Positions 9,942 to 35,827 of a stretch of DNA of 64,000 nucleotides are shown here, in pieces (position 1 is the stretch's first letter; each line of letters begins with the position of its first letter). The position numbers were made by a program, and so were the translations under genes. Location of the stretch: positions 84,582-148,581 of IMG/VR virus record IMGVR_UViG_3300032313_001465; one strand, given 5' to 3'. The notes under the pieces were generated by a model. The model made no database searches and was not told the DNA's origin. It saw only the letters and a program-made list of their open reading frames with translations. The stretch is from a virus.

Positions 9942-9976
9942 ATTTAACTATTATATTATCTGTCATATTTATGGGT

Positions 9977-10735
9977 ATGATTAAATTACTAAGTCTTTTA
10001 AAAGAAATAAAAGGTAAACCTAAAGCTATCTTTTTATCGGGTCCTGCAGGATCTGGGAAAACATTTATTTCTAAAAAATTAATCTCTTTAGACAAATTTC
10101 AAGTAATTAATATAGATGATACTTATGAGGAACTATTAAAATCTTCGGGTATGGGGATGAATCAAAAGAATTTTAGTCCTGAAGAGTTATCTCAAGCTAC
10201 TAAATTAATGGGTCGTGCTCAAGCAGTAACTAAAGAAAAATATGCTAAAGCACTTGAAGGATTAAACAATGTTATTATAGATGGTACAGGTGCTGCTTCA
10301 AAACCACTAATAAAGAAAAAATCAGAATTAGAAGCACTAGGATATGATACATTCATGTTAATAATTTGGACATCCCCTATAACTTCTTTATCTAGAAATG
10401 CAGAACGTGAACGTTCATTAATGCCAAGTATTGTGTTACGTACTTGGAGAGACATTAATAAAAATATAGATTTATATAAACAAGCATTTGGAGATAATAT
10501 AGCTATAATCAATAATGATCCTGAAGGTTTAGAAACCAAATTTGATGTTGAAGATATTAAGAAAAAATATTTTACAAAACAAATGGGAAAACCAAAAACA
10601 CCTGCAGAGCAAGAAAAATCTAAAAAAGAAACAGAACAGTTGAATAAAGATATAGAACAATTTATTAAAGAAAAACCACAATTCAACACCTTATCAGACG
10701 CTCAATCCAAAATAAATAAATTCATAAACAGCTAA
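9977..10735 (+). CDS. P-loop kinase (zeta-toxin/AAA_33-like) with MIKL leader
   Basis: GPAGSGKT Walker A; IIDGTG; RNAERER lid. Start placed at MIKLLSLLKE, just after the ATATTTAT motif. Confidence 0.7.
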   Translation: MIKLLSLLKEIKGKPKAIFLSGPAGSGKTFISKKLISLDKFQVINIDDTYEELLKSSGMGMNQKNFSPEELSQATKLMGRAQAVTKEKYAKALEGLNNVIIDGTGAASKPLIKKKSELEALGYDTFMLIIWTSPITSLSRNAERERSLMPSIVLRTWRDINKNIDLYKQAFGDNIAIINNDPEGLETKFDVEDIKKKYFTKQMGKPKTPAEQEKSKKETEQLNKDIEQFIKEKPQFNTLSDAQSKINKFINS

Positions 10736-11271
10736 TGATAAAACTTTTAGACCTCTTACGCGAAGAAAAACTAAATATTCTTAAACCTAGACGTTCCCCG
10801 GAAGAACGCCAATCTAACTTTCTTATTATAACCAATAAGAAAATTGAACAGTACATGAAGGATGGAGGCAAAGGTGATCTTGATTTAGCTAATACTAAAA
10901 TTACCTCACTACCAAATGGTCTAAAGGTTGGCGGTTTTCTGGATTTAAGAAATTCTTCCATCACTACATTACCAAATGGTTTAACGGTTGGAGATTATCT
11001 TTATTTAAGAGATACTAAAATTACATCATTACCCAATGATTTAACGGTTGGGGGTGAACTTGATTTAGCTAATATTAAAATTACTTCATTACCAAATGAT
11101 CTAACGGTTAGGGGTGATCTTAATTTAAGAGATACTAAAATTACATCATTACCAAATGGTCTAACAGTTGGAGGTAATCTTGATTTAGAAAATACTCCAA
11201 TAAGTAAAAAACATTCCGAAGAAGAAATTAAAAAAATGGTTCCGGGAGTAAAAGGCAATATTTATATATAA
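10735..11271 (+). CDS. Leucine-rich-repeat-like protein (20-aa repeats) with MIKL leader
   Basis: Repeats of LDLxNTKITSLPNxLxVGG; paralog at 21079. Confidence 0.75.
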   Translation: MIKLLDLLREEKLNILKPRRSPEERQSNFLIITNKKIEQYMKDGGKGDLDLANTKITSLPNGLKVGGFLDLRNSSITTLPNGLTVGDYLYLRDTKITSLPNDLTVGGELDLANIKITSLPNDLTVRGDLNLRDTKITSLPNGLTVGGNLDLENTPISKKHSEEEIKKMVPGVKGNIYI

Positions 11272-11282
11272 ACATAAAACAA

Positions 11283-11606
11283 ATGAAAAAATCAGAATTA
11301 AGACAAATTATTAAAGAGGAAATTAGTAAGGTGTTGAGTGAGATACAAACACCAATAGCTAATAAAACAGACAAATTTTTATTATATAGAAAGCCATCAT
11401 CTTCCCCTAGTCCGGGTCATGGTGCATATCTATTTTCATCTGGAAATACCCTAGATGAGTTATTTGATAATTGGATATTAACTATGCAATCCGGAGGATA
11501 TGGGTATAAAGGTCAATATTTAGATAATGAGCGCAAACGATTTGATATTGAACAAGAAAAATATTGGTCATCTCCTAGTTCATTTTACACACTCAAAATA
11601 AAATAA
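11283..11606 (+). CDS. Hypothetical protein with MKKSELRQIIKEE leader
   Basis: ORF with shared leader. Confidence 0.6.
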   Translation: MKKSELRQIIKEEISKVLSEIQTPIANKTDKFLLYRKPSSSPSPGHGAYLFSSGNTLDELFDNWILTMQSGGYGYKGQYLDNERKRFDIEQEKYWSSPSSFYTLKIK

Positions 11607-11611
11607 ATATA

Positions 11612-12004
11612 ATGAAAAAATCAGAATTAAGACAACTTATTAAAGAAGAAGTTGAATCTATAGTAAATGAGACACGTACTAAAGATTTTGAAGTAAAAGA
11701 TGAAATTGGTAAATTTTTTGTAGTTACATCCCCATATAAAGATAGTACTAAAGAAGATATATTATTTGATTCTGATGTTTTTCATTTTGCAAATCAAGTT
11801 AAAGAAGGACTATCATTACATGATGTTATAGGATTATACAAAAACAAATCAGATGCCAATAGAATAGCAACTGAAGCCTTAAAAGAACGTGATACCCATT
11901 TAGATGAATTAAAATCATCAATGGAAGAATTCAGAAACCATAAAAAAGAAACAGAAGATAAAAAATCAAAAGCTAAGGAATTAATTCAAAAATTAAAAAA
12001 ATAA
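11612..12004 (+). CDS. Hypothetical protein with MKKSELRQLIKEE leader
   Basis: ORF with shared leader; C-terminal coiled coil. Confidence 0.6.
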   Translation: MKKSELRQLIKEEVESIVNETRTKDFEVKDEIGKFFVVTSPYKDSTKEDILFDSDVFHFANQVKEGLSLHDVIGLYKNKSDANRIATEALKERDTHLDELKSSMEEFRNHKKETEDKKSKAKELIQKLKK

Positions 12005-13056
12005 TGAATTCTTTAGTAGAATATTTAATTATGCCTATTATAGGAGAATCTACCTATAAACCGGGAGTAGTATTACTTCCAGGAGCATTCAAACCCCCAA
12101 CCGAAGGACATTTTAATTTAGTTAAGGAATTGGCTATGGATCCTAGAACAAAAGAACTAATAATTATTATATCCTCAGGTCAGAGAGAAAATATAGGTTC
12201 TGAAGAATCTGAAAAAATATGGAAAATATATCTTAAACATCTTCCAAGTAATGTTAAAGTAATGATATCTCCTGAAAGTTCTCCAGTTAAAGCAGCATAT
12301 AGTATTATAAAAGATAATCCCGATACTCATTATTTAGTAGCAGTAGGATATAGAAATGAAAAAGATAAAAAGGATATCGATAGAATCAAATCCTCAGAAA
12401 AATATCCAAATGCTGAAGGATTAGTATATAAAACAGATTCATCCACAAGAGCTATAGACGCCCGAAAAGAACTAGAGTCAAATAATCAAGAAGGATTTAA
12501 TGAATATTTACCATCTCAACTTACCCCATCTGAAAAAAATAAAGTGTGGAATATATTAACTAAACCCCCAATCCAAGAGTCGGATCGAAAAGGAATTAAA
12601 GCATTTTCCCGTGAAATTATAACAACCAATGAATCACAATCTAAAGATTTTTCATTTTCATTAGAGGGGGGTTGGCTTCTTAAAGATGGGTTATTATCTT
12701 TATCAAATTCCATGATTGAAAGTGGAATAAATATTAAGCCGCTTCCTAAAGTTATATTAATAGAAGATGATAAAAGCAATGCATCTAATATTTTAGGTAA
12801 AACCGCTTATTATGATCCACAGAATAAAACAATAGTGCTTTATACTTTAAATCGTCATCCTATTGATGTGATGAAGAGCTTTTGTCATGAAATGTGGCAT
12901 CATCATCAAAACCTAGAAGGTAGATTAAACAATATAAATACTACTAATACTAATGAAGATGATTATTTAAATGAAATAGAAAAAGAAACATACTTAAATA
13001 GTCAGATTATATATAGGAATTGGGCTGATAAAATGAGAAAATTAAATAATGATTAA
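12004..13056 (+). CDS. Cytidyltransferase-like nucleotidyltransferase fused to an HExxH metallopeptidase-like domain
   Basis: PGAFKPPTEGH (HIGH-like) at the N-terminus; AYYDP...HEMWH at the C-terminus. Confidence 0.6.
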   Translation: MNSLVEYLIMPIIGESTYKPGVVLLPGAFKPPTEGHFNLVKELAMDPRTKELIIIISSGQRENIGSEESEKIWKIYLKHLPSNVKVMISPESSPVKAAYSIIKDNPDTHYLVAVGYRNEKDKKDIDRIKSSEKYPNAEGLVYKTDSSTRAIDARKELESNNQEGFNEYLPSQLTPSEKNKVWNILTKPPIQESDRKGIKAFSREIITTNESQSKDFSFSLEGGWLLKDGLLSLSNSMIESGINIKPLPKVILIEDDKSNASNILGKTAYYDPQNKTIVLYTLNRHPIDVMKSFCHEMWHHHQNLEGRLNNINTTNTNEDDYLNEIEKETYLNSQIIYRNWADKMRKLNND

Positions 13057-13567
13057 ATTGAAAGACATATTCGAAAACGAAGTAATAGATCAGGTATTTC
13101 AAATATATTGTGATCTTGATGGGGTGTTAGCAGATTTTGATAAACGATTCGAATATTTTGCAGGGATGTCTCCTTCTGAATATGAAAAAGCATTCGGAAC
13201 TAAAAAGTTTTGGGAACTGATAGACGAAAAAGTAGGTGTAAAATTTTGGACAGGAATACCGTGGATGTCGGATGGTAAAACACTTTGGGAATTTCTTCAA
13301 CCACACAATCCTATACTTTTATCCGCTCCCTCTAGAAATGAATCAAGTAAAATGGGTAAAAGAATTTGGGTTAAACGAAACATGCCTGGAACTAAACTTA
13401 TTTTAGCAAGTAGAAGTAATAAACAAAACTATTCTGATAAGTCTAACATACTTATCGACGATAGATTAGACACAATTGAAGAATGGAGAGCAAGAGGAGG
13501 AATAGGGATCCATCATACTTCAGCCGCATCAACAATAGCACAATTAAAAAAATTAGGATTTAAATAA
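13049..13567 (+). CDS. HAD-family 5'(3')-nucleotidase with MIKL leader
   Basis: DLDGVLADF, ILLSAP, ILIDDR, WRARGGIGI motifs. Confidence 0.8.
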   Translation: MIKLKDIFENEVIDQVFQIYCDLDGVLADFDKRFEYFAGMSPSEYEKAFGTKKFWELIDEKVGVKFWTGIPWMSDGKTLWEFLQPHNPILLSAPSRNESSKMGKRIWVKRNMPGTKLILASRSNKQNYSDKSNILIDDRLDTIEEWRARGGIGIHHTSAASTIAQLKKLGFK

Positions 13568-13573
13568 ATAAAT

Positions 13574-13969
13574 ATGAATATAAGATTAGTAGGTGATACC
13601 AAAGAAGATTTACAAGCCATTGTTAAAGACATTAAAGATTACTTTAAAAATGTTAACAAAGATTTTACAAGTAAATTTACAACCGAAAAACGTAAATTTG
13701 CAGAAGATGGAAAAATTGTTGAAAAATCAATAGATTTTATTACCGCTAAAGATAATGTTAATGGTAAAGAAACAACCATAAAACTTATTCCTATGTTAAA
13801 CCCAACTGAAATGAAAATTGAATTGGGAAATGAAGGAGAATCTGTTATTAAAGGTAAAATCAAAAATCAACTTAAGGGTCGTGGTAAGATTAAATCGTAT
13901 ACTAAGGATGCTAAAAAACCAATGAATGAAACACATTTATTGACTATAATCAAATCTATAATGAAATAA
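13574..13969 (+). CDS. Hypothetical protein
   Basis: 131-aa ORF in the operon. Confidence 0.55.
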   Translation: MNIRLVGDTKEDLQAIVKDIKDYFKNVNKDFTSKFTTEKRKFAEDGKIVEKSIDFITAKDNVNGKETTIKLIPMLNPTEMKIELGNEGESVIKGKIKNQLKGRGKIKSYTKDAKKPMNETHLLTIIKSIMK

Positions 13970-14541
13970 TGAGTGAAAATGTTTTAAAAAAGGAATTTAA
14001 TCCTAAAGATGTAAGTAGATTACGAAACCTTATCCAAGGTAAATATGGAGATAACACAATCACAGGAGTAGGTTATGCTAAGCCATTTATTTATAGAGAA
14101 GAAAATGATGTGTGGGAAGAAGATGGTAGAAGATGGACTATAAAAAACGGAATTAAACAAAATGTTACTAAATTAGACGAGGCTAAAAAAACACATCTTT
14201 TACCTTTATTATGTCCTTCTTGTAAATCACCAATGTCACCTCATAGAGATAGATCATTTTATAATATTCATAAGATGTGTTTAAATTGTGTTTCTGTAAT
14301 GGAAACTAAAATACGTCGTGAAGGAAAGTGGGAAGAATACGAAAGAAATATCCACAACAATGAAATAGATAATCTTATAAGAGAATTTAAGTTATGGGTA
14401 GAAGATGATTCAAAAGATAAAAACCAATCATATATCACGGAAGCTGGTGATCTTGAGAAATGGGTTGGGGGTTCTAGTACTGAACAAAAAGAACAACAAA
14501 TTCAAGAAACCCTCAAATATTTAGAAAATTTAAAGAAATGA
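13969..14541 (+). CDS. Hypothetical protein with a CxxC...CxxC zinc finger
   Basis: CPSC...CLNC. Confidence 0.55.
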   Translation: MSENVLKKEFNPKDVSRLRNLIQGKYGDNTITGVGYAKPFIYREENDVWEEDGRRWTIKNGIKQNVTKLDEAKKTHLLPLLCPSCKSPMSPHRDRSFYNIHKMCLNCVSVMETKIRREGKWEEYERNIHNNEIDNLIREFKLWVEDDSKDKNQSYITEAGDLEKWVGGSSTEQKEQQIQETLKYLENLKK

Positions 14542-15161
14542 ACATAACTTCTATTACATTATTATCTTCAATTTTAGTAGCACTAATTACTTCAGTATTA
14601 GGTCCCGTATTATTAGTATGGGTTCGAAGTAAATTTGATAATACTAAGAAAATCGATACATTAGGTGAAGCGTTTAAAGTCAATGAAGAAGTAGACCATC
14701 AATTAGATATTATGATGGACAAACTAAAATGTGATAGAATATGGATAGCTCAATTTCATAATGGAGGGCATTTTTACCCTACAGGAAAATCTATTCAAAA
14801 ATTCTCTATTTTCTACGAAAAAATATCACCACTAATAGTTCCAGTTAGAAACATATTCCAAAATATCCCGACCTCATTATTTCCTAAAACATTAGTTAAA
14901 CTACACAATGATGGGGAACTCATAATTCATGATAATGAAATAAGTAATTATCAAGATATATCCTATTTATTTGATAATTGTAAAGCTAAATCATTATATA
15001 TGATAGCCATAGAAGACTTAGAAGGACATTTTATAGGAATGATTTCAGTATCATATGAAAATAGTAAACATGTTCTGAATCAAGAAGAATGGATATTCTT
15101 ACGTCAAAAAATAGGAGCAATTGGAAGTATATTAACTAATTATTTAAACCCACAAAAATAA
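14538..15161 (+). CDS. Membrane protein with a GAF-like domain (holin T-like candidate)
   Basis: One N-terminal transmembrane helix followed by a GAF-like alpha/beta pattern (CDRIWIAQFHNG...IGMISVSY). Confidence 0.45.
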   Translation: MNITSITLLSSILVALITSVLGPVLLVWVRSKFDNTKKIDTLGEAFKVNEEVDHQLDIMMDKLKCDRIWIAQFHNGGHFYPTGKSIQKFSIFYEKISPLIVPVRNIFQNIPTSLFPKTLVKLHNDGELIIHDNEISNYQDISYLFDNCKAKSLYMIAIEDLEGHFIGMISVSYENSKHVLNQEEWIFLRQKIGAIGSILTNYLNPQK

Positions 15162-15168
15162 AACAAAA

Positions 15169-15366
15169 ATGGATAATTTTAGCGTAACTAAATGGAATAG
15201 AGAAAGATATATTGATGAAAACAAAGATGTTAAATCAACTAAAAAAATACAAGAAGCATATAATTCATTAATTTCTATGATTGAGAAAAAATCAAAACAA
15301 TTAAATGATGATGAATTATATGAATTACATGAAAAAATGAAATCGTTTTTTACAAAATCAATTTAA
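15169..15366 (+). CDS. Small hypothetical protein
   Basis: ORF with A-rich leader. Confidence 0.5.
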   Translation: MDNFSVTKWNRERYIDENKDVKSTKKIQEAYNSLISMIEKKSKQLNDDELYELHEKMKSFFTKSI

Positions 15367-15408
15367 CTTTTATACTATTTTACATATTTATTAATAAACA
15401 ATAACATA

Positions 15409-15936
15409 ATGAACAACGAATTTGATTTCAAAGGGTATTTAAAAAATAACCCACTATTAAAAGAAACTAATATTAATATCAATATTAACGAATCTAAACT
15501 TAGAGAAAGAGTAAAAGCCGAAATTTTATCTGCATTAAAAGAAAATGATGCATATGAAGGAATTGGGGAATTTGATAGTAATAAATCCGCTCGTATTAAA
15601 GAATTTATTATAGCACTTAATAGGCTTGTAGATGAATATCACGCAGAATTATACTTAAATGATAGTGTATTTGATGCTATTTCAATGGTGATAAAATATG
15701 CTCAAGAAGAAGCAATGAATATGAATGAAGCTGAAGAAAAAGACCAACCAGAAGAAGAAGAAACTCCAGAAGTAGCAGACGTAGAACCTGAAATTACGGG
15801 TGATGAAAAAATAGTACAAGACGCTTTAACAAAGGCATATGAAACTGCTAGTAAAATGGGTGATAAAAAATTATTAGACCAAATAGGAAACACTATTACA
15901 TTTTTTACCCGTACTCACATTGTAAGTAACAAATAA
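15409..15936 (+). CDS. Acidic hypothetical protein with several LxE sites
   Basis: LKE, INE, LKE, MNE sites; ATATTTAT at 15384. Confidence 0.55.
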   Translation: MNNEFDFKGYLKNNPLLKETNINININESKLRERVKAEILSALKENDAYEGIGEFDSNKSARIKEFIIALNRLVDEYHAELYLNDSVFDAISMVIKYAQEEAMNMNEAEEKDQPEEEETPEVADVEPEITGDEKIVQDALTKAYETASKMGDKKLLDQIGNTITFFTRTHIVSNK

Positions 15937-15964
15937 AATTTTTATAAACCAAAACCAATCATTT

Positions 15965-16141
15965 ATGAACACACAGGACTTAATTACCAGAATGCAAGAA
16001 GTATTTGAAACTCTAATTCATGAGGGCTCAAGTAAATTCAAATCAGGAAAAGCTAAAGCTAGAAAAGCAGCAAGTGAATTAAAAAAATTAGCAGGTGAAT
16101 ACAAAAGAGCATCTTTAGAAGAAAGCAAAACCACAATCTAA
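15965..16141 (+). CDS. Histone H1-like (Hc1-type) small basic protein, 58 aa, absent from the ORF track
   Basis: Manual translation: [58 protein letters not shown]. Confidence 0.6.
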
Positions 16142-17769
16142 TGACCCAAACATCAGGCCTCATCGTAAAAGGTGTAAATCCTATAGATAATCATGAAATA
16201 AGTAATGTTGTCCAAAGTGGTACATTTTACGGTGAGTGGTTTCCTGATAAAAATTATTGGTTTTTTCCTTTTGATGAGCAAAATTATGCATCATTAAGAG
16301 ATGATTTAGAACAAAAATTTATTGATACTGGAATTCATGCAGTATATACTGAAGTTAATGTTGATGTAGAATTAAACGAGTCTCTATCTAAAAAAGTAAT
16401 GGATGCTAGAGAGAAAATTCTTAAAAACATGAAATCAAATAAAAGAGAATTAGTAAAGCGATATGGTGCTGATGCTGAAAAAGTTATGTATGGTAGAGCA
16501 ACAAATTTAGCAAAAAAACAAATAAATAAAATGAATACAGAAAAATTAAGAGAACTTATAAAAAGTAAACTTCTAGAAGCTCCTAAAAAAGATCTAAATA
16601 ACGACGGAGAAATAAACTCAAAAGACTATTTAATGGCTCGTGATAAAGCTATTAAGGCAAATATGGGTACAAACGAAGCTGAAGAAGGTGATTATGTTTC
16701 TGATTTTATTAAAGCATTAGAAGATGTTAAAAGTGTTTTTTTATCTAAAGCCAAAAATAACAAAATAAAAGGCCCAATTTTAAAAGCATTTAATGAATTT
16801 ATTGACGAAATTGATAGACTTGCCCCTCAAAAATTAAAAGAAGACGAAAATGAATATCCAGAATTAACTGAAGCATATGTTCCAGATAATATTAAAGAAT
16901 TTTCCAAGAGAAAGGGTATTACTTCTTTAGTTAATAAAGCAGCAGGATGGGCTGAAAAAATAGGCAAAAGAATTACTGGAGGTACTGCTATTGGTAAAAA
17001 CTATGGTACATTAGTATTAGATATGGGTTATCAAAAGGGAGAAATTAGAATTAATATTGAAGATGAAATAATTGAATTATATGGTGAAGAAGTTAATAGC
17101 TTTCCTGAATTCAAACAAGTATATATGGATGAAAACGATAGTAAAGAATCGGAATCATTAAATGAAGATGATTATTTACAATCAGATGACGAATCAGATA
17201 TGGCTAAGTCGCAATTAATATCAATTCAATCTAGCGTTTCTAAATTAATGAATATGATTAAAGATAATGATCAACTAGACGCTTGGGTACAAGCTAAATT
17301 AACTAAAGCAGAAGATTATCTTGATTCAGTATCAGGATATTTAGAGGGTGAAAGTAGTTTAACTGAAAATGAAAAAGGATGGGATGTTAAAAAAGATACT
17401 CCAGAAATTAAAGCGTTAATGGTTACTGCAGATGATACATCAAAAACCCCATCAGAAAGAGATAAAGCAAGACAAAAAGCATACGATTTACGTAATAAAA
17501 TGTCTAAAGGTAAAATGGAAGAGAATGTAAGCTTAAGAAAAAATGATATTGTTATTTATAAAGGTAAAAAATTTAAAATAGGCATGATTGAAAATACTGG
17601 TGATTTTGATTTAGTTTATCTAAATACTATGGATGGTCAACCTGCCGAAGGTCCTAATGGAGGTTATTTAAGAGTACACGCTGATGGGTTACAAAAACAA
17701 TTGAAAGAGAATGATTTTGCTAAAACATTAGCTGAAAAATTAGCTAAACAAATTAAAGGAAATGACTAA
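16141..17769 (+). CDS. Modular putative head-internal polyprotein
   Basis: About 9 [LMT]xE-delimited segments, including EF-hand-like [12 protein letters not shown]. Confidence 0.5.
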
Positions 17770-18199
17770 AACTGATCTTCGAAATTTAATTAGAAGTATA
17801 GCTCAACCTATTCTAAAGACTCCACCATCTACAGAAATACCAAATGTAGAATATGAGGAATTAGAAAAATTTCCTGAATTAAAAAAAACAATCGTCGATT
17901 TACTTACTCAAGACTATGCTCGTTTTTTAGATGGAATTGATTGGGTTGCTCCTCGCCCTACTACATTTAGAGTAAATTTATTAAATGGTCAAAATTTTTA
18001 TTTAATTTATGGAAAACGTAGCTGGATAGCTCAAGTTGAAGGTAAAAAATATTATCTTCTAAATTTAAACGAAGAAGAATCAGCATGCCAAGCAATTGCA
18101 AGGATATTAAGGTTTGGTGCTAAAAATGAACCAGTAGCAGAAGGAGAAGAAGAACCACCAAAAGAAGAAAAACCACCAAAAGAAGAAACCCCCGAATAA
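17762..18199 (+). CDS. Hypothetical protein
   Basis: Leader [11 protein letters not shown]; Pro/Glu-rich tail. Confidence 0.55.
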
Positions 18200-18202
18200 A
18201 AT

Positions 18203-19414
18203 ATGGACGTATTTGATAAATTTTTTAAAAGATATTCATATAAATTTCCAAAAGGATATCCTGACATGAAAAATGAGCAGGATGTTTTACTATTAGAGAA
18301 TATACTTTATAATTTACTAGAAGAAAGAATTGTACTTAATGAGGCTTCTGCTAATAAATTTGCTAAAAATACATTATTATCTAAGAATCCTAAAGTATTT
18401 AGTGATACTGCTACTAATGATAGAATAGCAAATAAAGCTAACATATCAAATGATGAATTTGTTAAGCTAATTAAAAATACTTTTAAAGTAAAAAACGTTA
18501 AAGTTACACCTCCTAAACAAAAACCAAACCCTTCAAGTAAGTTTTCACTTTTCTCATTTGATACAAGTGAAGGTCCTGCTAATATTATTTTAGCGCTTCC
18601 TGCTACAGCAAATAAAGGAGTTGATTTTGAAAAAGGATTAACAAAAAGTCTACAAGATTATGCGGGTTATCCATTAGATGAAATTGATAATGAAATAGTA
18701 AAAAAAATATATAAAGATCTAAAAATAAACCCCGAATTATTATCTCCTGAAGACATAATAAATGCAGGAGAAACTGATACTAAACGTCCTATTAGTTTTA
18801 ATGGACCTCAATCTAGAGGAAAACAAATTGCTGATATTGTAATCACATATCAAAATAAACCATATTATTTATCCATTAAAGATCCTAAAGGCTCAGGAAT
18901 ATATAATGGTGGAACTTTAAAATCCATTAAATATAATAAGGATGAAACCAAAGTTATATTTGATGAAGGTGAATATAATTCTGATAAATTTAAAAAAGAA
19001 GTATTGGATGCATTTGGTGTTAATCCTAAAAGAATAGTAAAAGGCCTGAATGAATATTTAAACACTCAAGCTGGAATTAAATCAGGTAAACCTACCAATT
19101 TCGAAAGCACAAATGCTGATTTAGATAAAATATCAAAGTTCTTAGGCTCAGCACTAGATTATGGATATTATTATATAAGAAAAATTAATGATAATGACGT
19201 AAAAATATACAATATAAATTCAGCTAAAACAGCAAATCAATTAATGGGTACTCCAACAAGTGTTGAGGTAAAATATCCAGGTCCTACCACAAAAATAACA
19301 GCAGTAAAAGTAAACTTATCAGATTCAATATTTGGATTGAAAAATGCTACTCTAAACATTAGAAATGATCATGGTGGAGTAACAACCCCCGCTTTTAAAG
19401 TAACTATTAATTAA
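18203..19414 (+). CDS. Putative PD-(D/E)xK restriction-like nuclease with an N-terminal leader
   Basis: GVDFE...IADIVI...YLSIK catalytic-like pattern; leader ends at VLNE. Confidence 0.4.
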   Translation: MDVFDKFFKRYSYKFPKGYPDMKNEQDVLLLENILYNLLEERIVLNEASANKFAKNTLLSKNPKVFSDTATNDRIANKANISNDEFVKLIKNTFKVKNVKVTPPKQKPNPSSKFSLFSFDTSEGPANIILALPATANKGVDFEKGLTKSLQDYAGYPLDEIDNEIVKKIYKDLKINPELLSPEDIINAGETDTKRPISFNGPQSRGKQIADIVITYQNKPYYLSIKDPKGSGIYNGGTLKSIKYNKDETKVIFDEGEYNSDKFKKEVLDAFGVNPKRIVKGLNEYLNTQAGIKSGKPTNFESTNADLDKISKFLGSALDYGYYYIRKINDNDVKIYNINSAKTANQLMGTPTSVEVKYPGPTTKITAVKVNLSDSIFGLKNATLNIRNDHGGVTTPAFKVTIN

Positions 19415-19419
19415 ATAAG

Positions 19420-20232
19420 ATGAACAATAGACTCACTCGACTAATTAAAGAAGTATTATCATCCCCACCTAAAAAAGATTGTGGATGTGGTTGTCATGGA
19501 AAATGTACCAAATCCCCTACATTAAACGAAAATTTAGGAGTTAAAGTAATTATGACTGAAAATATGAAGTATCATATTGATAACAAAAAACCACTAATCG
19601 AAAATACATTCCGCTATGGTTCAAAAGCATTTTTAGATTTATGGGCTGAAGCTAGATACTTATATTCACGTGATGCTATTGATTTAAGTGAATCTGATAA
19701 ACAAATTATTTTAGAAACACATTTAGGAGAACGTGGTTTATTTAATGGTGAATTAGTTCCATTAGATTTACCTATGGAAGAATTAGACGAAAATACAGAT
19801 GATGTAGTGGCAGTATTGAATAATCCTAACATAGCTGACGACGTAAAGTCAATGTTATTCAACGCATATAAAAACGGACAATTAACATCTACCCAAGTAA
19901 TCAATATAATTAAAAAAACCGTTAAAGAGCATTTAAACGAAGCAGAATTTAAAGGTAAAGAAGTACAATTAGGTAAACCTAAACGTGGCGGTTCTAAAAA
20001 ATTCTTTGTATATGTAAAAGATCCTAAAACCAAGAAAGTTAAAAAAGTATCATTTGGAGATACAACTGGATTGTCAACTAAAATAAATAACCCCAAAGCA
20101 AGACAAGCTTTTGCCGCTCGTCATAAGTGTGGTACTGGGGAACCTAAAACAAGTGCTAAATATTGGTCATGTCGTTTACCTCGTTACAGCAAGCTTTTAG
20201 GATTAAAGAATTCATTTTCAGGATTTTGGTAG
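19420..20232 (+). CDS. Modular hypothetical protein
   Basis: CGCGC segment; basic C-terminal module after LNE (AEFKGKEVQLGKPKR...ARHKC...YWSC). Confidence 0.55.
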   Translation: MNNRLTRLIKEVLSSPPKKDCGCGCHGKCTKSPTLNENLGVKVIMTENMKYHIDNKKPLIENTFRYGSKAFLDLWAEARYLYSRDAIDLSESDKQIILETHLGERGLFNGELVPLDLPMEELDENTDDVVAVLNNPNIADDVKSMLFNAYKNGQLTSTQVINIIKKTVKEHLNEAEFKGKEVQLGKPKRGGSKKFFVYVKDPKTKKVKKVSFGDTTGLSTKINNPKARQAFAARHKCGTGEPKTSAKYWSCRLPRYSKLLGLKNSFSGFW

Positions 20233-20289
20233 ACTCATATATTCCAGTAAACTGCCTTAATCCTGTCATATGTATGATAAATACATAAT

Positions 20290-21075
20290 ATGACAAAAAT
20301 ATATTATTTACATAGAGGAAACAACATTCCATTTTATATTGGGAAAACTATAAATGAAAAGGATAGAAAACACCAACATAAAAACAAGTTAGGGAAAGAT
20401 GTAACTTTAGAAATTATAGATGAAATTCCCACAAAGGAATGGAGATATTGGGAAGAATTTTATATTTCACTTTTTAAACATTGGGGATTTAAATTAGAAA
20501 ATAAAAATAATGGTGGTTGTGGTAGTATAGGAGGTTATAAAAACCCCTTAACCTCAGAAGCCCATAAAGGGAGAATTAGCCCAAATAAAAATAAAGGGAA
20601 AAAAATAATCCAATATGACTTAACAGGAAAATTTATTAATGAATGGGATAACATAAATGAGGCCATACTCACCTTAAATCTTACAATAACTAATGAAAGT
20701 ATTCGTCAATGTTTAATTGGTAAAAGTAAAAAATCAGCTAATTTTATCTGGAGAAATTTAACCCAAGATTACCCAATCCATTTATCTAGTAACGAAGTAG
20801 AATATATATTAAAAAAAACAAATGGTCCTAAAGGTCAAAAACTTAATACCGGAGAAAAAATCAGCCAATCTTTAAAAGGAAAACGAAAATCCCCTCAATT
20901 CATAAAAAATATAAGTAAACCTGTAGCTCAATATGATAAACAAGGAAACTATCTTACACAATATAAAAGTATCACAGAAGCCGCTTTGGCTGTTAATGGA
21001 TGGAACGAAAACATATGTCAGTGTTGTAAAGGAAACAAAAAATCATCAGCTGGATATTTTTGGCAATATTTATAA
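20290..21075 (+). CDS. GIY-YIG homing endonuclease with two NUMOD1/IENR1-type DNA-binding repeats
   Basis: KIYYL...FYIGKT; IIQYDLTGKFINEW and VAQYDKQGNYLTQYKSITEAA...SSAGYFW. Confidence 0.8.
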   Translation: MTKIYYLHRGNNIPFYIGKTINEKDRKHQHKNKLGKDVTLEIIDEIPTKEWRYWEEFYISLFKHWGFKLENKNNGGCGSIGGYKNPLTSEAHKGRISPNKNKGKKIIQYDLTGKFINEWDNINEAILTLNLTITNESIRQCLIGKSKKSANFIWRNLTQDYPIHLSSNEVEYILKKTNGPKGQKLNTGEKISQSLKGKRKSPQFIKNISKPVAQYDKQGNYLTQYKSITEAALAVNGWNENICQCCKGNKKSSAGYFWQYL

Positions 21076-21078
21076 TAA

Positions 21079-21495
21079 ATGATAAAACTTTTAGATCTTT
21101 TACGCGAAGAAAAGCTTGATATCCTTAAACCTAGACGCTCTGAGGAAGAACGCCAAGCTAACTTTCTCATTGCAACCAATAAAAAAATTGAACAATACAT
21201 AAAGGATGGAGGCAAAGGTGATCTTAATCTACAAAATACCCCAATTACTACATTACCAAATGATTTAACAGTTGGAGGTAATCTTTATTTAGATGGTAGT
21301 AAAATTACTACATTACCAAATGGTCTAAAGGTTGGTGGTTATCTTGATTTAGATAATACTAAAATTTCCACATTACCAAATGATCTAAAAGTTGGTAGTG
21401 ATCTTGATTTAAGAAATACTCCAATAAGTGAAAAATATTCCGAAGAAGAAATTAAAAAAATGGTTCCCGGAGTAAAAGGCGATATTTATACATAA
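21079..21495 (+). CDS. Leucine-rich-repeat-like protein, paralog of 10735
   Basis: Near-identical N- and C-termini; 40 aa (two repeats) shorter. Confidence 0.75.
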   Translation: MIKLLDLLREEKLDILKPRRSEEERQANFLIATNKKIEQYIKDGGKGDLNLQNTPITTLPNDLTVGGNLYLDGSKITTLPNGLKVGGYLDLDNTKISTLPNDLKVGSDLDLRNTPISEKYSEEEIKKMVPGVKGDIYT

Positions 21496-21505
21496 ACATA
21501 AAATA

Positions 21506-22051
21506 ATGAACAAACTAAACAACTTAAACGAAATTACATCAGCTAACCAAGCTGATATCAAAATCCCAAATACTCTATCCCCAGATGTAACTAAAATGTT
21601 AATCGAAAGAATAGGAGATGAATATACTGCTCATTATTTTTATAGAAATGCATCTAACTGGTGTGATGATAAAGCATATAAAAAAGCAGCCGCATTTTTT
21701 AAAGCCGAAGCTGAAAGCGAATTAACACATGCCGAAAAATTACAAACATATTTAACAGGATGGAATATAATGCCTATCATTCCTCCAGTAAAAATGATCC
21801 CTTCATTCACTAATCTTATTGATATAGTAAACAAAGCATATGAAATGGAATACAATTTATTCTTATCATACAATTCAAATTCATCATCTGTTTTTCCTAC
21901 TGACTTAGCAACTTTTGATTTTTTACAAGAATTAAGACAAATCCAAAACCAGGCAATAGCTGAATATTCTGATTTATTAAATGCAGCTCAATTAGTTAAT
22001 GTGTCTAATAATTTTGAATTATTATACTTCGAAGGAAAATATTTTAAATAA
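21506..22051 (+). CDS. Ferritin-like protein
   Basis: IGDEYTAHYFY, AAFFKAEAESELTHAEKL, AYEME, DLATFDFLQ...Q..E ferroxidase pattern. Confidence 0.8.
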   Translation: MNKLNNLNEITSANQADIKIPNTLSPDVTKMLIERIGDEYTAHYFYRNASNWCDDKAYKKAAAFFKAEAESELTHAEKLQTYLTGWNIMPIIPPVKMIPSFTNLIDIVNKAYEMEYNLFLSYNSNSSSVFPTDLATFDFLQELRQIQNQAIAEYSDLLNAAQLVNVSNNFELLYFEGKYFK

Positions 22052-22426
22052 GTGATTAAGCTTATAGACATATTCAATCAACTTCTTCAAGAAGAAAAAG
22101 AAAAACGTGATAGATGTTTACGTATTGCTGATCGCAAATACGATAAACCATCTGCTTATAAATCAGGAGCCGTTGTAAGGTGTCGTAAAGGAGAGATTTG
22201 GAAAGACTTAAAAGAAGAAGAATCACTCCATAAATGGTTTAAACGTTCTGGTCCTAAAGGTAAAGAAGGTGGATGGGTAGATTGCAACGCACCTGATGGT
22301 AGTGGAGGATATAAAGCATGTGGTAGAAAAAAAGGTGAAAAACGTTCTAAATACCCATCTTGTCGTCCTACACCTGCACAATGTAAATCACCTGGAAAAG
22401 GTAAAAAATGGGGAAAAACAAAATGA
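22052..22426 (+). CDS. Basic Cys-rich hypothetical protein with MIKL leader
   Basis: GTG start; modules separated by LQEE and LKEEE. Confidence 0.55.
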   Translation: MIKLIDIFNQLLQEEKEKRDRCLRIADRKYDKPSAYKSGAVVRCRKGEIWKDLKEEESLHKWFKRSGPKGKEGGWVDCNAPDGSGGYKACGRKKGEKRSKYPSCRPTPAQCKSPGKGKKWGKTK

Positions 22427-23121
22427 TCAAACTATCAGATATCTTAAAAGAAATTATTGAGGGAACTTGTGGATATAATACAGATGTTAAAACAGGTAAA
22501 AAATTAGATACACCTGGTGGATTAAAAGAAGTAGATCCTAAAAAAGGAACAGGTAAAAAACCTAAGGGATCAGGTCGTCGTTTATACACAGATGAAAATC
22601 CAAAAGATACTGTATCTATTAAATTCAAAACTAAAGAAGATATAGTTGATACATTAAATAAAGATTCATTTAAAGCTAAATCCCACGCTCGCCAATCCCA
22701 AATTATTAATTTAATACACCAACGCGTTAGAGCTGCATATGGTAAAGCAAAAGATCCTGAAGTAAAATCTAGATTAAAACGCGCTCTAGACTATATTGAA
22801 TCTCGTAAAGAATCATCTAAAAAGAAAACAGAACGTTTAAATAAGCTAAAAGAAACATCAGACCCACAATCAGGTAAAGCAGCACCTTATGGTTCAGGAT
22901 ATGCTCCTGTTAAAGAATTAGTAACAGATACAGAAGTTATCTGTGATAACTGTGGATGGGAATGGGATATTGAAGATGGAGGGGAAGATTTATATATTTG
23001 TCATAAATGTGGTCATGATAATACTCCAGAACAATTAAATGAAAAATGTTGGAAAGGATATACTCAAAAAGGTATGAAAACAATGTTTGGTAAAAAATAT
23101 CCAAATTGTGTAAAAAAATAA
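22423..23121 (+). CDS. Modular hypothetical protein with MIKL leader and zinc ribbon
   Basis: Start at MIKLSDILKE (ATGA overlap); CDNC...CHKC; terminal KCWKGY...PNCVK module. Confidence 0.55.
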   Translation: MIKLSDILKEIIEGTCGYNTDVKTGKKLDTPGGLKEVDPKKGTGKKPKGSGRRLYTDENPKDTVSIKFKTKEDIVDTLNKDSFKAKSHARQSQIINLIHQRVRAAYGKAKDPEVKSRLKRALDYIESRKESSKKKTERLNKLKETSDPQSGKAAPYGSGYAPVKELVTDTEVICDNCGWEWDIEDGGEDLYICHKCGHDNTPEQLNEKCWKGYTQKGMKTMFGKKYPNCVKK

Positions 23122-23139
23122 CATATTTATAATTAAACA

Positions 23140-23457
23140 ATGGTAAAACTACTTCAATTACTAACTGAAGCTAAAGAAAGCTTTGAACAATTTGCTACAA
23201 ATCGTTTAGCAGGTGCTGAAAAAATTATAGCTAATGCCAAAGAAAAGGGTGGTGATGCTTTATTAACATACACCCACTTTAAAATAAAACCATCTTACTA
23301 TAAAAAAGCTATAGATGGGAAATTTGATAAAGAATCCGCTAAAAAAGAATTTGAGCAAACATACAAAAAAATATCATTAGATATGACTCAAACTGAATTT
23401 CAAAGAGAGGTTGGTCGTTTAGAAGTATTAGGTGAACTATTAATAAGAGAAAAATAA
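23140..23457 (+). CDS. Hypothetical protein with MVKLLQLLTE leader
   Basis: ORF; ATATTTATA at 23123. Confidence 0.55.
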   Translation: MVKLLQLLTEAKESFEQFATNRLAGAEKIIANAKEKGGDALLTYTHFKIKPSYYKKAIDGKFDKESAKKEFEQTYKKISLDMTQTEFQREVGRLEVLGELLIREK

Positions 23458-23458
23458 T

Positions 23459-23878
23459 ATGATTAAATTAACAGATATATTAAACGAAGCAGAGATAAAT
23501 AAATGTCCGTCTCCAACTCAAAGTATTGAGTTAAACCTTCAAAATAGACAGAAGGCAATTAATGAATATGGATATGGTCCCTTAAATCCTAATGAACCTA
23601 ATGAAAAGTTTTGGCAAGCTAAAGCAGATATGTGGAAACTTGATTCTGTAAAAGAGGCTAAAACATCACGTTGTGGTAATTGTGCGGCATTTGATGTTAC
23701 AGAAAAAACACTAAATTGTATAGCTAAAGGAATAGGAAACGATGAAGGATCAGAAGATCCATTTGACGTAATTAAAGCAGGACAATTAGGATATTGTAGG
23801 TTTTTAAAATTCAAATGTGCTGCTGCTCGAACTTGCGATGCTTGGGTTGTTGGTGGTCCAATTAAAGATCCAATGTAA
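23459..23878 (+). CDS. Cys-rich hypothetical protein with MIKL leader
   Basis: CGNC...GYC...C...CDAW, a possible metal-binding pattern. Confidence 0.55.
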   Translation: MIKLTDILNEAEINKCPSPTQSIELNLQNRQKAINEYGYGPLNPNEPNEKFWQAKADMWKLDSVKEAKTSRCGNCAAFDVTEKTLNCIAKGIGNDEGSEDPFDVIKAGQLGYCRFLKFKCAAARTCDAWVVGGPIKDPM

Positions 23879-24141
23879 TGAAACCATATACTGACGTTTT
23901 AACAACGGAAAATACAATTATTAGGGAGTTTGGTGATAACATAGACCCCGTTGAATTAAAATGGCATATGGACTCTTCTTCCCGCCACGTTACCATTTTA
24001 GAGGGTAAAGGATGGAAATATCAAGAAGATAATAAATTACCTTTGGAACTTAACGAAGGGGATTGTATATTTATACCAAAACAAACATTTCACCGTATTT
24101 ATAAAGGAACAACCCCATTAAAAATAAAAATTAAACAATGA
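23878..24141 (+). CDS. Cupin-fold protein
   Basis: WHMD...LEGKGW...GDCIFIPKQTFHRI. Confidence 0.65.
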   Translation: MKPYTDVLTTENTIIREFGDNIDPVELKWHMDSSSRHVTILEGKGWKYQEDNKLPLELNEGDCIFIPKQTFHRIYKGTTPLKIKIKQ

Positions 24142-24428
24142 AAAAACCAGAATTAAAGCAAATTATTAAAGAAGAAATACAAAAGATATTAAGTGAACAG
24201 CAAAAACGTATGCAAAAGCTTGCAGGTATTAACGAAGATAACACATTTAGTGACAATTACACAGTTAGTAATGAACAATATAAATTGATGGATAGTTATG
24301 TAAATCAACGTGCACTCCGTGATTTTCTAAATGCCGCTGAAAACATGATGGAAGATTTTCATGAAGCAGGATTTCCGGCAAGAGATGCATTTTATTGGTT
24401 TTATACTAAGCTAACTGCAAATATTTAG
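24138..24428 (+). CDS. Hypothetical protein with a double leader (MKKPELKQIIKEE + RMQKLAGINE)
   Basis: Both leader types in tandem. Confidence 0.6.
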   Translation: MKKPELKQIIKEEIQKILSEQQKRMQKLAGINEDNTFSDNYTVSNEQYKLMDSYVNQRALRDFLNAAENMMEDFHEAGFPARDAFYWFYTKLTANI

Positions 24429-24463
24429 GTAGATTATATAACAGATAAAATAAGAAATGCATA

Positions 24464-24745
24464 ATGGCAAAATTAAACAAACAATTCCGACGTATGCAAA
24501 AGCTTGCAGGAATTCTTAACGAAAACGAGGAAATAGATAATTTTATTGATGTATTAACAGATATGGCTATTAAAGCTAACATCATTAAAGACAAAGATAT
24601 AAATAAAGACGAAGTAATAGATGCATTATATGATACATGGGAAGATATGGGATTTGATGATTATGAAGAAACAGGACAGGGGATTAGTACATCAGATTAT
24701 AATAGATCTTTAGAAATATTTACCAATTATATTAAAGATAAATAA
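24464..24745 (+). CDS. Acidic hypothetical protein with RMQKLAGILNE leader
   Basis: Leader shared with 62528 and 63493. Confidence 0.6.
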   Translation: MAKLNKQFRRMQKLAGILNENEEIDNFIDVLTDMAIKANIIKDKDINKDEVIDALYDTWEDMGFDDYEETGQGISTSDYNRSLEIFTNYIKDK

Positions 24746-24756
24746 TAAAACATTTA

Positions 24757-24838
24757 AACCGATTTCATAGCCGGTTGCTCTAACAAGAGATAAAAATATG
24801 GAAGCTGTGGCTCCGATCGAAAGATTGGCGCCACTTTT
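24757..24838 (+). ncRNA. Candidate structured RNA ending in a terminator-like hairpin
   Basis: GC-rich island with three hairpins; the last (gtggc-tccgatc-gaaa-gattgg-c-gccac) is followed by tttt. Confidence 0.35.
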
Positions 24839-24840
24839 AC

Positions 24841-24870
24841 TTGGAAATTTAAACAAAATTTATTACATTA
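24841..24870 (+). promoter_or_regulatory. Bacteroidota-type promoter TTG-N20-TACATT(A)
   Basis: Same architecture as 8182 and 26521. Confidence 0.55.
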
Positions 24871-24895
24871 AAATATAAGTTAAAATAAAGAAATA

Positions 24896-26239: not shown

Positions 26240-26244
26240 AATAT

Positions 26245-26520
26245 ATGTCTAAAAAAGAAAAATACTTCGAAACCAAAACCATGAAGATAGGAGGAGCACT
26301 CCATCATTTCTTTAGAACTGAGGAATCACCAAATTGGAAATACCATAATTTCTCAGGTCCTGCTATTGAACCTGTAGAAAGTGGAAGTACATTTAAGAAA
26401 TCATATTACTTATATGGTATTCAATATACATCTGAACAATTTAAAGAAGCAGTTAGAGATAGAGAAGGTCTTCCATTCCACAAAACGGCAGCATTTAAAC
26501 AAGGATCTAACAGAACTTAG
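26245..26520 (+). CDS. Hypothetical protein
   Basis: ORF; HNFSGPAIE...YYLYG motif. Confidence 0.55.
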   Translation: MSKKEKYFETKTMKIGGALHHFFRTEESPNWKYHNFSGPAIEPVESGSTFKKSYYLYGIQYTSEQFKEAVRDREGLPFHKTAAFKQGSNRT

Positions 26521-26550
26521 TTGGGAGTATAAATAAAATTTATTATCTTA
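26521..26550 (+). promoter_or_regulatory. Bacteroidota-type promoter TTG-N20-TATCTT(A)
   Basis: Same architecture as 8182 and 24841. Confidence 0.55.
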
Positions 26551-33993: not shown

Positions 33994-35205
33994 ATGAAAA
34001 CATTACAAACACAATATAATCTTATTAAAGAAGGAAAAGGAAGTAAACATGTATTTTTAAAGGAAGCAAAAAGCTTATATCCTGACATGATTACTAATTT
34101 TTCAACTTTTGAACAAACTGAAAAAATTCTTAAAAATAGAGGAGTAATTAACGAAAATTTTGTTGGATTACAACCTATTAACGATTGGGAACCATCTCCA
34201 AAACAAGACTATGAAATAGCATTTAAAAAATTCTTATCTGAAGTAGAAGAAGAAAAAGTTAAAGCTGATACTAAAAAAGTGTCTAAATATGTAGAAGATA
34301 CTGATGCTCATAGTTTTGATAATAAAGATCGTAAAAATATTGATAATTTAAGTGGTCAAGAAGTACTTAATGGGTTTTATACCGAATTAAAAGCGCCTAA
34401 AAACGCAGATAAAACGAAAGACGAATTAATGGATATCGTTACTAAAAATCTATCAAAAGATCCGTTATACTACATTAAAAACGGCCAATTTGGAACTGAA
34501 GGAGTGGGATATACTGAAGACGCTCCAGGTTTAGGTAAGCCTAAAGAAGCAAAAGGTAAATATAAATCAAGTGGATATGGCGATTTAGATAATAAACAAA
34601 CAGCTCCAAAATCAAACGTTAAGGATTCAGGAAAAAGTGAATACAAAACTGGTATGCCTAAGAAAGTAAAAGAAATGGATATGAAAGCTCAATCTTCTAA
34701 AGGTGTACAAAAAATGGCTACTCCTGGTAAACCAAAAACTATAAAACTAAATGAAATAGGAATGTTTCATGATCCTATGGGATATAATAAAGGAGCAAAA
34801 TCTCAAAAGGAAGTAGCTCGTGATATATTAATGAATGCTGGATTGTCTGATGAAGAAATAAAAAAGTTCATTAGTGATAATATGTTTAAAAAAGGAAGAT
34901 TAGATGATTTAGCTAAAGAATATATTAAATCCCTTAAAGGACTAAATGAAAATCAAGAATCAAATACAGATGTATTAAAAGATTTAATATCAAGACATGA
35001 TTGGTACTTTGAAATGAGTGATGATAATAGAAAATATAAAGATGGTCAAGCATCTGAAAAGAAAATTATGGATTTAGTAAATAGAATGGGAGATGAAGGC
35101 AAAAAAATCTATAATTCAATGGCACCAAAAGATAGACAATTAAAAGAATCCGTAGTTGATAGAATAATAGAATCTATTCTTGAAAGACTTAAGAAAATTA
35201 AATAA
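33994..35205 (+). CDS. Putative prohead core/internal protein
   Basis: Multiple LxE sites (IKE, INE, LSE, LNE x2, LKE); immediately upstream of the protease. Confidence 0.5.
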   Translation: MKTLQTQYNLIKEGKGSKHVFLKEAKSLYPDMITNFSTFEQTEKILKNRGVINENFVGLQPINDWEPSPKQDYEIAFKKFLSEVEEEKVKADTKKVSKYVEDTDAHSFDNKDRKNIDNLSGQEVLNGFYTELKAPKNADKTKDELMDIVTKNLSKDPLYYIKNGQFGTEGVGYTEDAPGLGKPKEAKGKYKSSGYGDLDNKQTAPKSNVKDSGKSEYKTGMPKKVKEMDMKAQSSKGVQKMATPGKPKTIKLNEIGMFHDPMGYNKGAKSQKEVARDILMNAGLSDEEIKKFISDNMFKKGRLDDLAKEYIKSLKGLNENQESNTDVLKDLISRHDWYFEMSDDNRKYKDGQASEKKIMDLVNRMGDEGKKIYNSMAPKDRQLKESVVDRIIESILERLKKIK

Positions 35206-35206
35206 A

Positions 35207-35827
35207 ATGAGTAAACAACTTCTAATAGAAACTAGACCATTCCAAGTTAATCCAATGCAACTTGTTGAAGGAACCAAAGGATCTTCAGGAAATCCATTAG
35301 TAGAAGGTATTTTAGCTACAGTAGAAGTAAAAAATGGAAATGGAAGATACTACAAGAGAGAGTTATGGGAAAGGGAATTAGAAACATACATGCAAAGTAT
35401 TAAAGAAAATCGTGCAACTGGAGAATTAGATCACCCCAGCACTGAAGTTATTAACTTAAAAAATGTATCTCATGCTATCAAAGATATTTGGTGGGATGGG
35501 GACAACATAATGGGTAAAATCGAAATTCTACCTACCCCATCAGGTAATATCCTAAAAGCACTTATAGAAAGCAATATCTCAGTAGGAGTATCTTCAAGAG
35601 GAATGGGTACTTTAAAACAAGAAGGCGATTTAATGGAAGTACAAGATGATTTTACATTAACATGTTGGGATTTTGTATCTACTCCTTCTAATCCAGGTAG
35701 CTGGATGCATCCAATAAATGGAATGATGAACGAAGGTTTACAATCAATTAAAACAAATAAGTATTCTAAAGTAAATTCTATTCTTTTTGAAATATTATGC
35801 GCTCACGGCACTTGCCCAATAATTTAA
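35207..35827 (+). CDS. Prohead protease (T4 gp21-like)
   Basis: NGNGRYY, GELDHP, VGVSSRGMG, WDFVSTPS. Start reassigned to MSKQLLIE. Confidence 0.93.
   Translation: MSKQLLIETRPFQVNPMQLVEGTKGSSGNPLVEGILATVEVKNGNGRYYKRELWERELETYMQSIKENRATGELDHPSTEVINLKNVSHAIKDIWWDGDNIMGKIEILPTPSGNILKALIESNISVGVSSRGMGTLKQEGDLMEVQDDFTLTCWDFVSTPSNPGSWMHPINGMMNEGLQSIKTNKYSKVNSILFEILCAHGTCPII

Follow-up and report, generated by a model that had tools for sequence, protein, structure and literature searches.

A T4-type phage gene with modules joined at prohead-protease-like tripeptides: a candidate precursor of capsid cargo

An open reading frame (ORF) at positions 16141-17769 of a 64,000-nucleotide stretch of virus DNA (IMG/VR record IMGVR_UViG_3300032313_001465, positions 84,582 to 148,581) encodes a protein of beads-on-a-string build, with about nine modules, each 33-98 residues long, and a (L/M/T)-x-E tripeptide at every boundary. 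The whole stretch, called the window below, is the last 64 kb of a complete record of 148,581 bp with direct terminal repeats. The phage is a T4-type myovirus, and its nearest cultured relative is Flavobacterium phage vB_FspM_immuto, with capsid proteins that are 59% identical. An earlier note on this DNA, made from the sequence alone, read the ORF as a polyprotein that the prohead protease cuts into several independent peptides inside the head. Indirect, computational evidence supports this protease-module reading, and from it we infer cutting, packaging and ejection. That the prohead protease cuts the protein in one fashion or another is quite likely; that the protein is a precursor (polyprotein) of capsid cargo, cut by this protease into pieces that are retained, is the interpretation we favor, with moderate confidence.

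In the following, P0001 is the protein of this ORF, and other P-numbers are homologs from a protein search. L-numbers are related IMG/VR loci, and gene context was compared across 80 of them. The modules of P0001 are numbered M1-M8 from the N-terminus, and ‘sites’ are the hydrophobic-x-Glu tripeptides at the joints.

The joints were analyzed with the conserved starts of seven module types as anchors, upstream of which 262 proteins provide 194 distinct 10-residue contexts. The residue directly before the module (P1) is Glu in 190 of the 194 and Asp in none, against backgrounds of 9.6% Glu and 8.0% Asp; the remaining four contexts have Ala, and at least some of these are one-residue register shifts. 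Position P3 is Leu in 139 contexts, Ile in 21, Val in 15 and Met in 10 (together 95%), while P2 is free (Asn, Glu, Asp, Thr, Ser, Lys or Gly). Beyond the tripeptide, the sequence is unrelated between contexts because different modules precede. For single modules, Glu stands directly before M5 in 94 of 98 distinct contexts, all 36 distinct contexts upstream of M6 end in (L/I/V)-x-E, and M7 has Glu at P1 in all 17.

All nine tripeptides that the earlier note named are present in P0001 (LNE 78-80, LLE 144-146, TNE 177-179, LKE 232-234, LTE 242-244, LNE 340-342, LTE 407-409, MEE 459-461 and LKE 521-523), and there are two more, LRE 136-138 and LAE 530-532. Within this one protein, L-x-E occurs 9 times where 4.1 are expected (shuffle P = 0.015), an excess that is suggestive, no more. 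Across the family, LxE, IxE and MxE occur at 1.4-1.5 times expectation; VxE, TxE, AxE, SxE, LxD and ExL are not raised. The strong evidence above chance is comparative: the Glu before modules, never replaced by Asp, and the breakpoints of homology, which fall at the tripeptides.

The T4 protease gp21 cleaves after L/I-X-E, and Asp at P1 blocks processing (PMC9026906). As read from the upstream contexts, the joint rule of the P0001 family is this published rule. A protease of the same type is encoded in the window (Table 1), and no peptidase domain was found in P0001 itself with Pfam or PHROG. The P1 preference also bears on an alternative in which P0001 is an uncut multi-domain virion or cytoplasmic protein, and the tripeptide is structural, for instance capping a helix or domain, or follows from acidic linker composition. 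The L-x-E excess within P0001 is indeed modest, the linkers are Glu-rich, an I-x-E is conserved inside M5, and many phage proteins are shuffled-domain mosaics that undergo no processing. A cap or composition effect should, however, also allow Asp, whose frequency here is close to that of Glu. Seven unrelated module types (helical, alpha/beta and beta-barrel ones among them) follow the tripeptide whatever is upstream, the tripeptide is found in segments modeled as disordered, and stand-alone modules gain a short leader that ends in the same tripeptide. We consider an uncut protein unlikely.

The joints could instead be recombination seams, where similar DNA words (TTA-AAN-GAA and so on) guide cassette exchange and the peptide is incidental, or is read by something other than the prohead protease. 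Six joints of the P0001 gene do read TTR-AHN-GAR, modules are exchanged at joints, and short regulatory cassettes are reported to mediate shuffling in T4-type genomes (PMC2839356). With the middle codon free, however, only about 5-6 nucleotides are shared, as expected from coding Leu and Glu in an AT-rich genome, and selection is at the protein level, for Glu and never Asp. Since the joint DNA holds no repeat longer than chance, only short chance-level matches, this idea ranks low, and we regard it as highly improbable.

Predicted structures agree with cutting between modules. The full-length AlphaFold2 model of P0001 (predicted template modeling score, pTM, 0.24; mean predicted local distance difference test, pLDDT, 56) consists of small separate folded units, with low-confidence stretches at residues 74-82, 130-150, 171-190, 227-248, 316-364, 396-413 and 456-463. 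The earlier note had named sites inside folded domains at the background frequency as an outcome that would refute it, and the model shows otherwise: 9 of the 11 candidate sites are in low-confidence linkers, at pLDDT below 50, a class that holds 39% of the residues (binomial P = 0.0046). When M5 is modeled alone (AlphaFold2, residues 235-345, 61-sequence alignment), pLDDT rises to 85 and pTM to 0.74; the core is confident from 245 to 334, and the ends, 235-244 and 335-345, are disordered. The edges of the domain thus coincide with LTE244 and with the linker holding LNE342, the kind of match between domain boundaries and LxE positions that the earlier note proposed to look for. Conservation of the Glu that precedes M5 is at least 90%, although this residue lies in a disordered segment.

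The protein search returns 761 relatives of P0001, of 300-786 residues, and an exhaustive search of representatives returns 2994 clusters (at 50% identity) with proteins of 134-1164 residues. Collinear full-length homologs, the other outcome that by the earlier note would count against it, are not what these searches give; the relatives are mosaics in which modules are missing, doubled, re-ordered or moved to another gene. In maps of high-scoring segment pairs (HSPs), residues 237-327 are missing from P0007 and 463-519 from P0008, and the helical M6 precedes M4 and M5 in P0016 and similar proteins. HSP ends cluster at residues 146 (13 times) and 179 (60 times), and HSP starts at 78-82 (89 times), 181 (20 times) and 404 (65 times). 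Stand-alone modules, which the earlier note predicted, do occur, with a leader and then directly M5 in P0200, P0232, P0204 and P0262 and with a leader of the scaffold-tail type in others; the re-ordered modules that it also predicted are found among homologs and related loci. These alignments show modules that evolve as independent cassettes, with loss, doubling, re-ordering and gene-to-gene moves exactly at the tripeptides. Such cassette evolution fits fast-changing, host-directed functions.

The two ends of P0001 illustrate the pattern. M1 is optional; in most homologs, its place is taken by an N-terminal leader of 7-9 residues that ends in L-x-E and aligns with LNE 78-80 of P0001. Second, internal copies of M1 follow an L-x-E in P0003, P0004 and P0015, and in P0003 and P0004 M1-like copies are inserted exactly in the part that comprises M4 and the spacer. 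M8 is absent from P0008, P0010 and P0011 and is preceded by a different module in P0080; the C-terminal helix is retained where M8 is deleted (P0008).

Gene order is kept in the 80 loci: genes like ORFs 13969 and 14538, a variable part, genes like ORFs 15409 and 15965, the P0001 gene, and then genes like ORFs 17762, 18203 and 19420, onward to terminase and portal. Within this frame, M2 opens the gene in the P0001 slot in 69 of the 80 loci, and that gene varies in length by as much as about 1.7 kb. Of the other modules, M3 occurs in 29 loci, M6 in 33, M1 in 4, M4 in 2 and M7 in 3. M5 occupies the P0001 slot in only 6; in 18 loci, it lies in a second motif-rich gene upstream of the gene like ORF 15409. 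One example is L016 8102-10498 (798 aa), which is followed in the same neighboring slot by L016 10812-12365 (517 aa); both genes have many modules, each ending in L-x-E. In the window, the neighboring slot holds only a 65-aa ORF (15169-15366). No paralogs of P0001 were found in the phage's own genome.

Within M2, residues 131-146 (nucleotides 16531-16578, ending in LLE 144-146) form a leader-like peptide. The earlier note took such a peptide inside the chain as a sign of gene fusion, and this is borne out by L011, where the syntenic gene starts with the peptide as a true N-terminus, six codons downstream of a stop. It is internal in 35 of its 36 occurrences in the loci and also N-terminal in P0044, P0070 and P0109. 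The peptide is similar to leaders at the N-terminus of other window ORFs; its BLAST match to the N-terminus of ORF 19420 has 9 identities in 18 positions at E 0.13, which is not significant alone. A second fusion is seen downstream. Residues 1-119 of ORF 17762 align with residues 672-790 of the 841-aa immuto_191 (E 2e-24), and since the alignment begins at the first residue, the leader with which ORF 17762 starts lies inside the fused protein. The same tripeptides divide immuto_191, which carries M6.

Similar leaders are common nearby. More than 12 ORFs at 9971-28016 and 61777-63461 start with short leaders ending in L-x-E, of the types M-I-K-L-x-D-L-L-x-E and M-K-x-x-E-F-R-K-L-I-R-E-E, and the scaffold and capsid protein also open with a short peptide that ends in L-x-E. 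The two genes at 18203-19414 and 19420-20232, which are syntenic in all related loci, have 6 L-x-E each where 1.5 and 1.7 are expected. In most relatives of the former, only the first 40-60 residues are conserved; ORF 19420 starts with a peptide like residues 135-152 of P0001.

Several observations connect the family with the head. L-x-E is raised in head-core genes (11 versus 3.0 expected in ORF 32196-33047 and 7 versus 1.6 in the protease) and is not over-represented in sheath, tail-fiber, primase or terminase genes. ORF 32196-33047 probably encodes a core protein of the prohead that undergoes heavy processing. The same tripeptides occur in N-terminal or acidic parts of the capsid protein and scaffold; in the capsid protein, candidate maturation sites at 49-51 and 58-60 lie beside the position where the mature N-terminus of T4 gp23* aligns. 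Modules are also shared with ORF 33994: P0218 consists of the first 55 residues of that ORF (67% identity, E 4e-21) followed by M5, and a 58-residue module of P0080 (residues 101-158) matches its residues 326-378 (E 2e-11). ORF 33994 itself starts with a leader-like peptide and is divided by L-x-E sites.

These connections raise the possibility that P0001 is sacrificial, a core protein or scaffold accessory that, in the manner of T4 gp22, gp67 and gp68, helps to build or fill the prohead and is then cut so that its fragments leave the shell, and that its modules have no separate later function. The T4 core proteins have many L/I-x-E sites per chain and some acidic parts, and they yield many fragments that mostly leave the head (PMC9026906). 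The products of P0001 would be small (1.2-11 kDa), the scaffold of this phage is equally motif-rich, and the shared modules lead to a gene at the gp68 position. The T4 core proteins, however, are mostly non-globular, and their genes lie between those for portal and capsid, whereas the P0001 gene is outside the portal-to-capsid cluster (30267-38780) and encodes folded domains that are conserved. A number of modules have a compact, confident fold and strong conservation (M5 at about 50-70% identity; M7 and M8 are well modeled), which is unexpected in disposable filler. The gain, loss and re-ordering of cassettes among syntenic phages resembles diversifying cargo and not a size-critical structural part. 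We judge a purely sacrificial role improbable and return to retained cargo as the preferred interpretation.

A further connection is found in cyanophages. M6 occurs in SSM2_109 of cyanophage S-SM2, between two M-N-E sites. This protein (L002 2728-4854), encoded between gp16 and gp17, is a mosaic divided by (L/M/V)-x-E, with modules that turn up piece by piece in 503 phage records, among them podoviruses of Pelagibacter and Prochlorococcus. SSM2_109 belongs to cluster T4-GC119, which PMC3037559 (Suppl. Table 8) lists among structural proteins; one of its three cyanophage virion proteomes has 13 peptide counts for the cluster. The phage concerned is S-SM1 as inferred from the main text, with the column order of the table read from its legend. 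This evidence is circumstantial because the detected protein is not tied to any P0001 module.

Along P0001, the three kinds of block that the earlier note had described are all present, together with others (Table 1). The EF-hand-like block is in M3, where residues 151-162 have the loop pattern D-x-N-x-D-G-x-I-x-x-x-D; there is a single loop, which Pfam Dockerin_1 matches at 151-165 below threshold (E 0.022, 15.4 bits versus a cut-off of 22.9). The helical block spans residues 350-407, in M6. The SH3-like block is a beta barrel at 470-513, in M8; with the barrel taken from the full-length model, MRG chromodomains and the KOW region of eS4 head the Foldseek list, at E 0.09-0.3. M2, which is the constant region, is proposed to be the targeting part. 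The spacer at 235-244 is disordered in both the full-length and the M5-alone models. For P0001 as a whole, Pfam and PHROG give nothing usable, only the sub-threshold dockerin loop and phrog_12788, a family with no assigned function, and the whole model has no convincing fold match in Foldseek (best E 0.09).

M5 is the most widespread module: of the 150 representatives listed from the 2994 clusters, most match P0001 best in this stretch; the identity quoted above holds across 60 aligned representatives. It has no Pfam family, and tblastn finds no match in the cultured-phage collection; M5 seems to be on record only in metagenomes. Searches with Foldseek against the PDB, VIA-align (wide), BFVD and ESM Atlas give no convincing known fold. 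The best VIA-align Z is 6.1, to Mediator Med17; the C-terminal domain of T4 MotA has Z 5.2, and BFVD gives one family member only. Because none of these matches is convincing, we claim no function for M5.

Table 1. Modules of P0001 and other features of the window (positions are those of the window; residues are those of P0001)
Feature	Position	Strand	Description
ORF 16141-17769 (P0001)	16141..17769	+	542 aa plus stop; candidate prohead-protease-processed cargo polyprotein
M1	16141..16380	+	Residues 1-80; acidic, mixed alpha/beta; ends LNE 78-80
M2, constant region	16381..16578	+	Residues 81-146; basic, net +11, long helices
M3	16579..16677	+	Residues 147-179; one dockerin/EF-hand-type calcium loop and a helix; ends TNE 177-179 (non-canonical P3)
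M4 and spacer	16678..16872	+	M4, residues 180-234, helical hairpin, ends LKE 232-234; 10-residue acidic spacer, 235-244, ends LTE 242-244
M5	16873..17166	+	Residues 245-342; alpha/beta domain, folded core 245-334, then linker ending LNE 340-342
M6	17167..17367	+	Residues 343-409; acidic two-helix block; ends LTE 407-409
M7	17368..17523	+	Residues 410-461; two helices, pLDDT about 80-85; ends MEE 459-461
M8	17524..17709	+	Residues 462-523; SH3/chromo-like small beta barrel, pLDDT 69-90 by 10-residue blocks; ends LKE 521-523
C-terminal helix	17710..17766	+	Residues 524-542 (19 residues); contains LAE 530-532
Downstream ORF 17762	17762..18199	+	145 aa; own leader-like N-terminus; synteny conserved in related loci
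Large terminase	28675-30255		
gp20 portal	30267-32168		
ORF 32196-33047	32196-33047		283 aa; directly after portal, T4 gp67/gp68 position; no Pfam/PHROG family
ORF 33994	33994..35205	+	Directly upstream of protease, T4 gp68 position; shares modules with P0001 relatives
T4 gp21-type prohead protease	35180..35827	+	Proposed processing enzyme; Pfam Peptidase_S77 E 3.8e-29; phrog_207 head maturation protease E 1.8e-58
Acidic scaffold-like protein	36029-37096		
gp23 capsid protein	37137-38780		
Tail sheath	47308-49035		

The ATG of the P0001 gene shares one nucleotide with the upstream stop, and the next ORF overlaps it by 8 nucleotides. Three genes of the homing-endonuclease type (NUMOD1/HNH; phrog_3339) lie among the structural and cargo genes, at 20290-21075, 38889-40388 and 49849-51333 (minus strand), and one of them directly follows the capsid gene.

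The favored interpretation, retained capsid cargo, can be set out in three steps. First, the basic constant region, with its leader-like peptide, would bring the chain into the prohead scaffolding core; the scaffold is very acidic, in contrast to the net charge of +11 at residues 81-146. Second, after closure of the shell, the gp21-type serine protease would cut after the Glu of each exposed (L/I/M)-x-E between modules, as the motif and the presence of the enzyme suggest. About ten pieces would be expected, of 80, 66, 33, 55, 10, 98, 67, 52, 62 and 19 residues. Third, by analogy with T4 IPI*, the folded pieces may remain in the head alongside the DNA and pass into the host together with it. 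T4 IPI* has 76 residues.

Several points weigh against this scheme. The 194 contexts share ancestry and are not phylogenetically independent. TNE 177-179 and MEE 459-461 are non-canonical, and in many homologs the joint before M3 is P-M-E. The folded M5 has a conserved I-x-E within a helix, at 251-253, so that, as in T4, a hydrophobic-x-Glu motif alone cannot suffice for cutting. P0001 has no short N-terminal targeting peptide with an early site and starts with the 80-residue M1; its targeting would therefore need an internal element, for which T4 offers no precedent. The gene is about 11 kb upstream of the terminase gene rather than in the portal-to-capsid cluster. The proteome match to T4-GC119 comes from another phage family.

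The closest known counterparts are the T4 internal proteins IPI, IPII and IPIII and Alt (PMC9026906, PMC3012670), with which P0001 has in common a gp21-type protease and a hydrophobic-x-Glu motif. They also have short leaders ending in the motif, as do most P0001 homologs and the stand-alone modules, and they are small, fast-evolving cargo in which only the leader and site are conserved. Each T4 internal protein, however, has its own gene, an N-terminal leader and a single N-terminal site (with a C-terminal one as well in Alt), whereas P0001 has about nine modules on one chain, a site at every joint and only an internal leader-like peptide. No sequence similarity was found between P0001 and any T4 internal protein.

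Polyvalent proteins of phages and conjugative elements (Iyer et al. 2017, PMC5512222) likewise combine many reshuffled, independent domains in one polypeptide; the domains are predicted to reach the new host together with the DNA, and proteolysis is believed to free some of them. They are known enzymes and anti-restriction domains, and where such a protein is processed, as is common but not universal, the peptidase is part of its chain, whereas the modules of P0001 are tiny and its joints match a prohead protease acting in trans. A polyvalent protein would have at least two domains of the known conflict repertoire in its chain; for P0001, Pfam gives no family at E up to 0.1 apart from the sub-threshold dockerin loop. 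In phiKZ, 201phi2-1 and SPN3US (PMC5694885, PMC9026906), diverged gp21 homologs cut many head and ejection proteins after Glu at a three-residue motif, and propeptides have several redundant sites. There, however, the motif is S/A-x-E and long propeptides are removed from single mature proteins; a chain of interchangeable modules is not described. Our literature search turned up no published account of protease-jointed polyproteins in T4-like phages, and the nearest concept is that of polyvalent proteins. The P0001 scheme would be T4 capsid-cargo processing with many modules on one chain, a new arrangement around a known protease and motif.

More broadly, and only tentatively, T4-type phages of lakes and oceans may make one capsid-targeted precursor that is cut in the head into at least eight independently evolving mini-proteins, small enough for the tail and injected with the DNA as a combinatorial cocktail for host takeover or anti-defense, with new cocktails arising by cassette exchange at three-residue joints. 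M5, with about 3000 clusters and a place in no catalog, would in that case be a major unrecognized class of injected phage protein. The cargo reading of P0001 can be tested directly, because the cultured relative vB_FspM_immuto carries the same kind of gene. If that reading is right, the T4 model of one leader per cargo would be extended to one precursor that delivers many. A changing set of small proteins would be loaded into a tailed-phage capsid in a compact, highly evolvable way. There would be a first handle on thousands of orphan phage proteins, since modules that follow an exposed (L/I/M)-x-E in phages with a gp21-type protease would be candidate injected proteins, and the joints would provide a natural design rule for placing several payloads in T4-type capsids.

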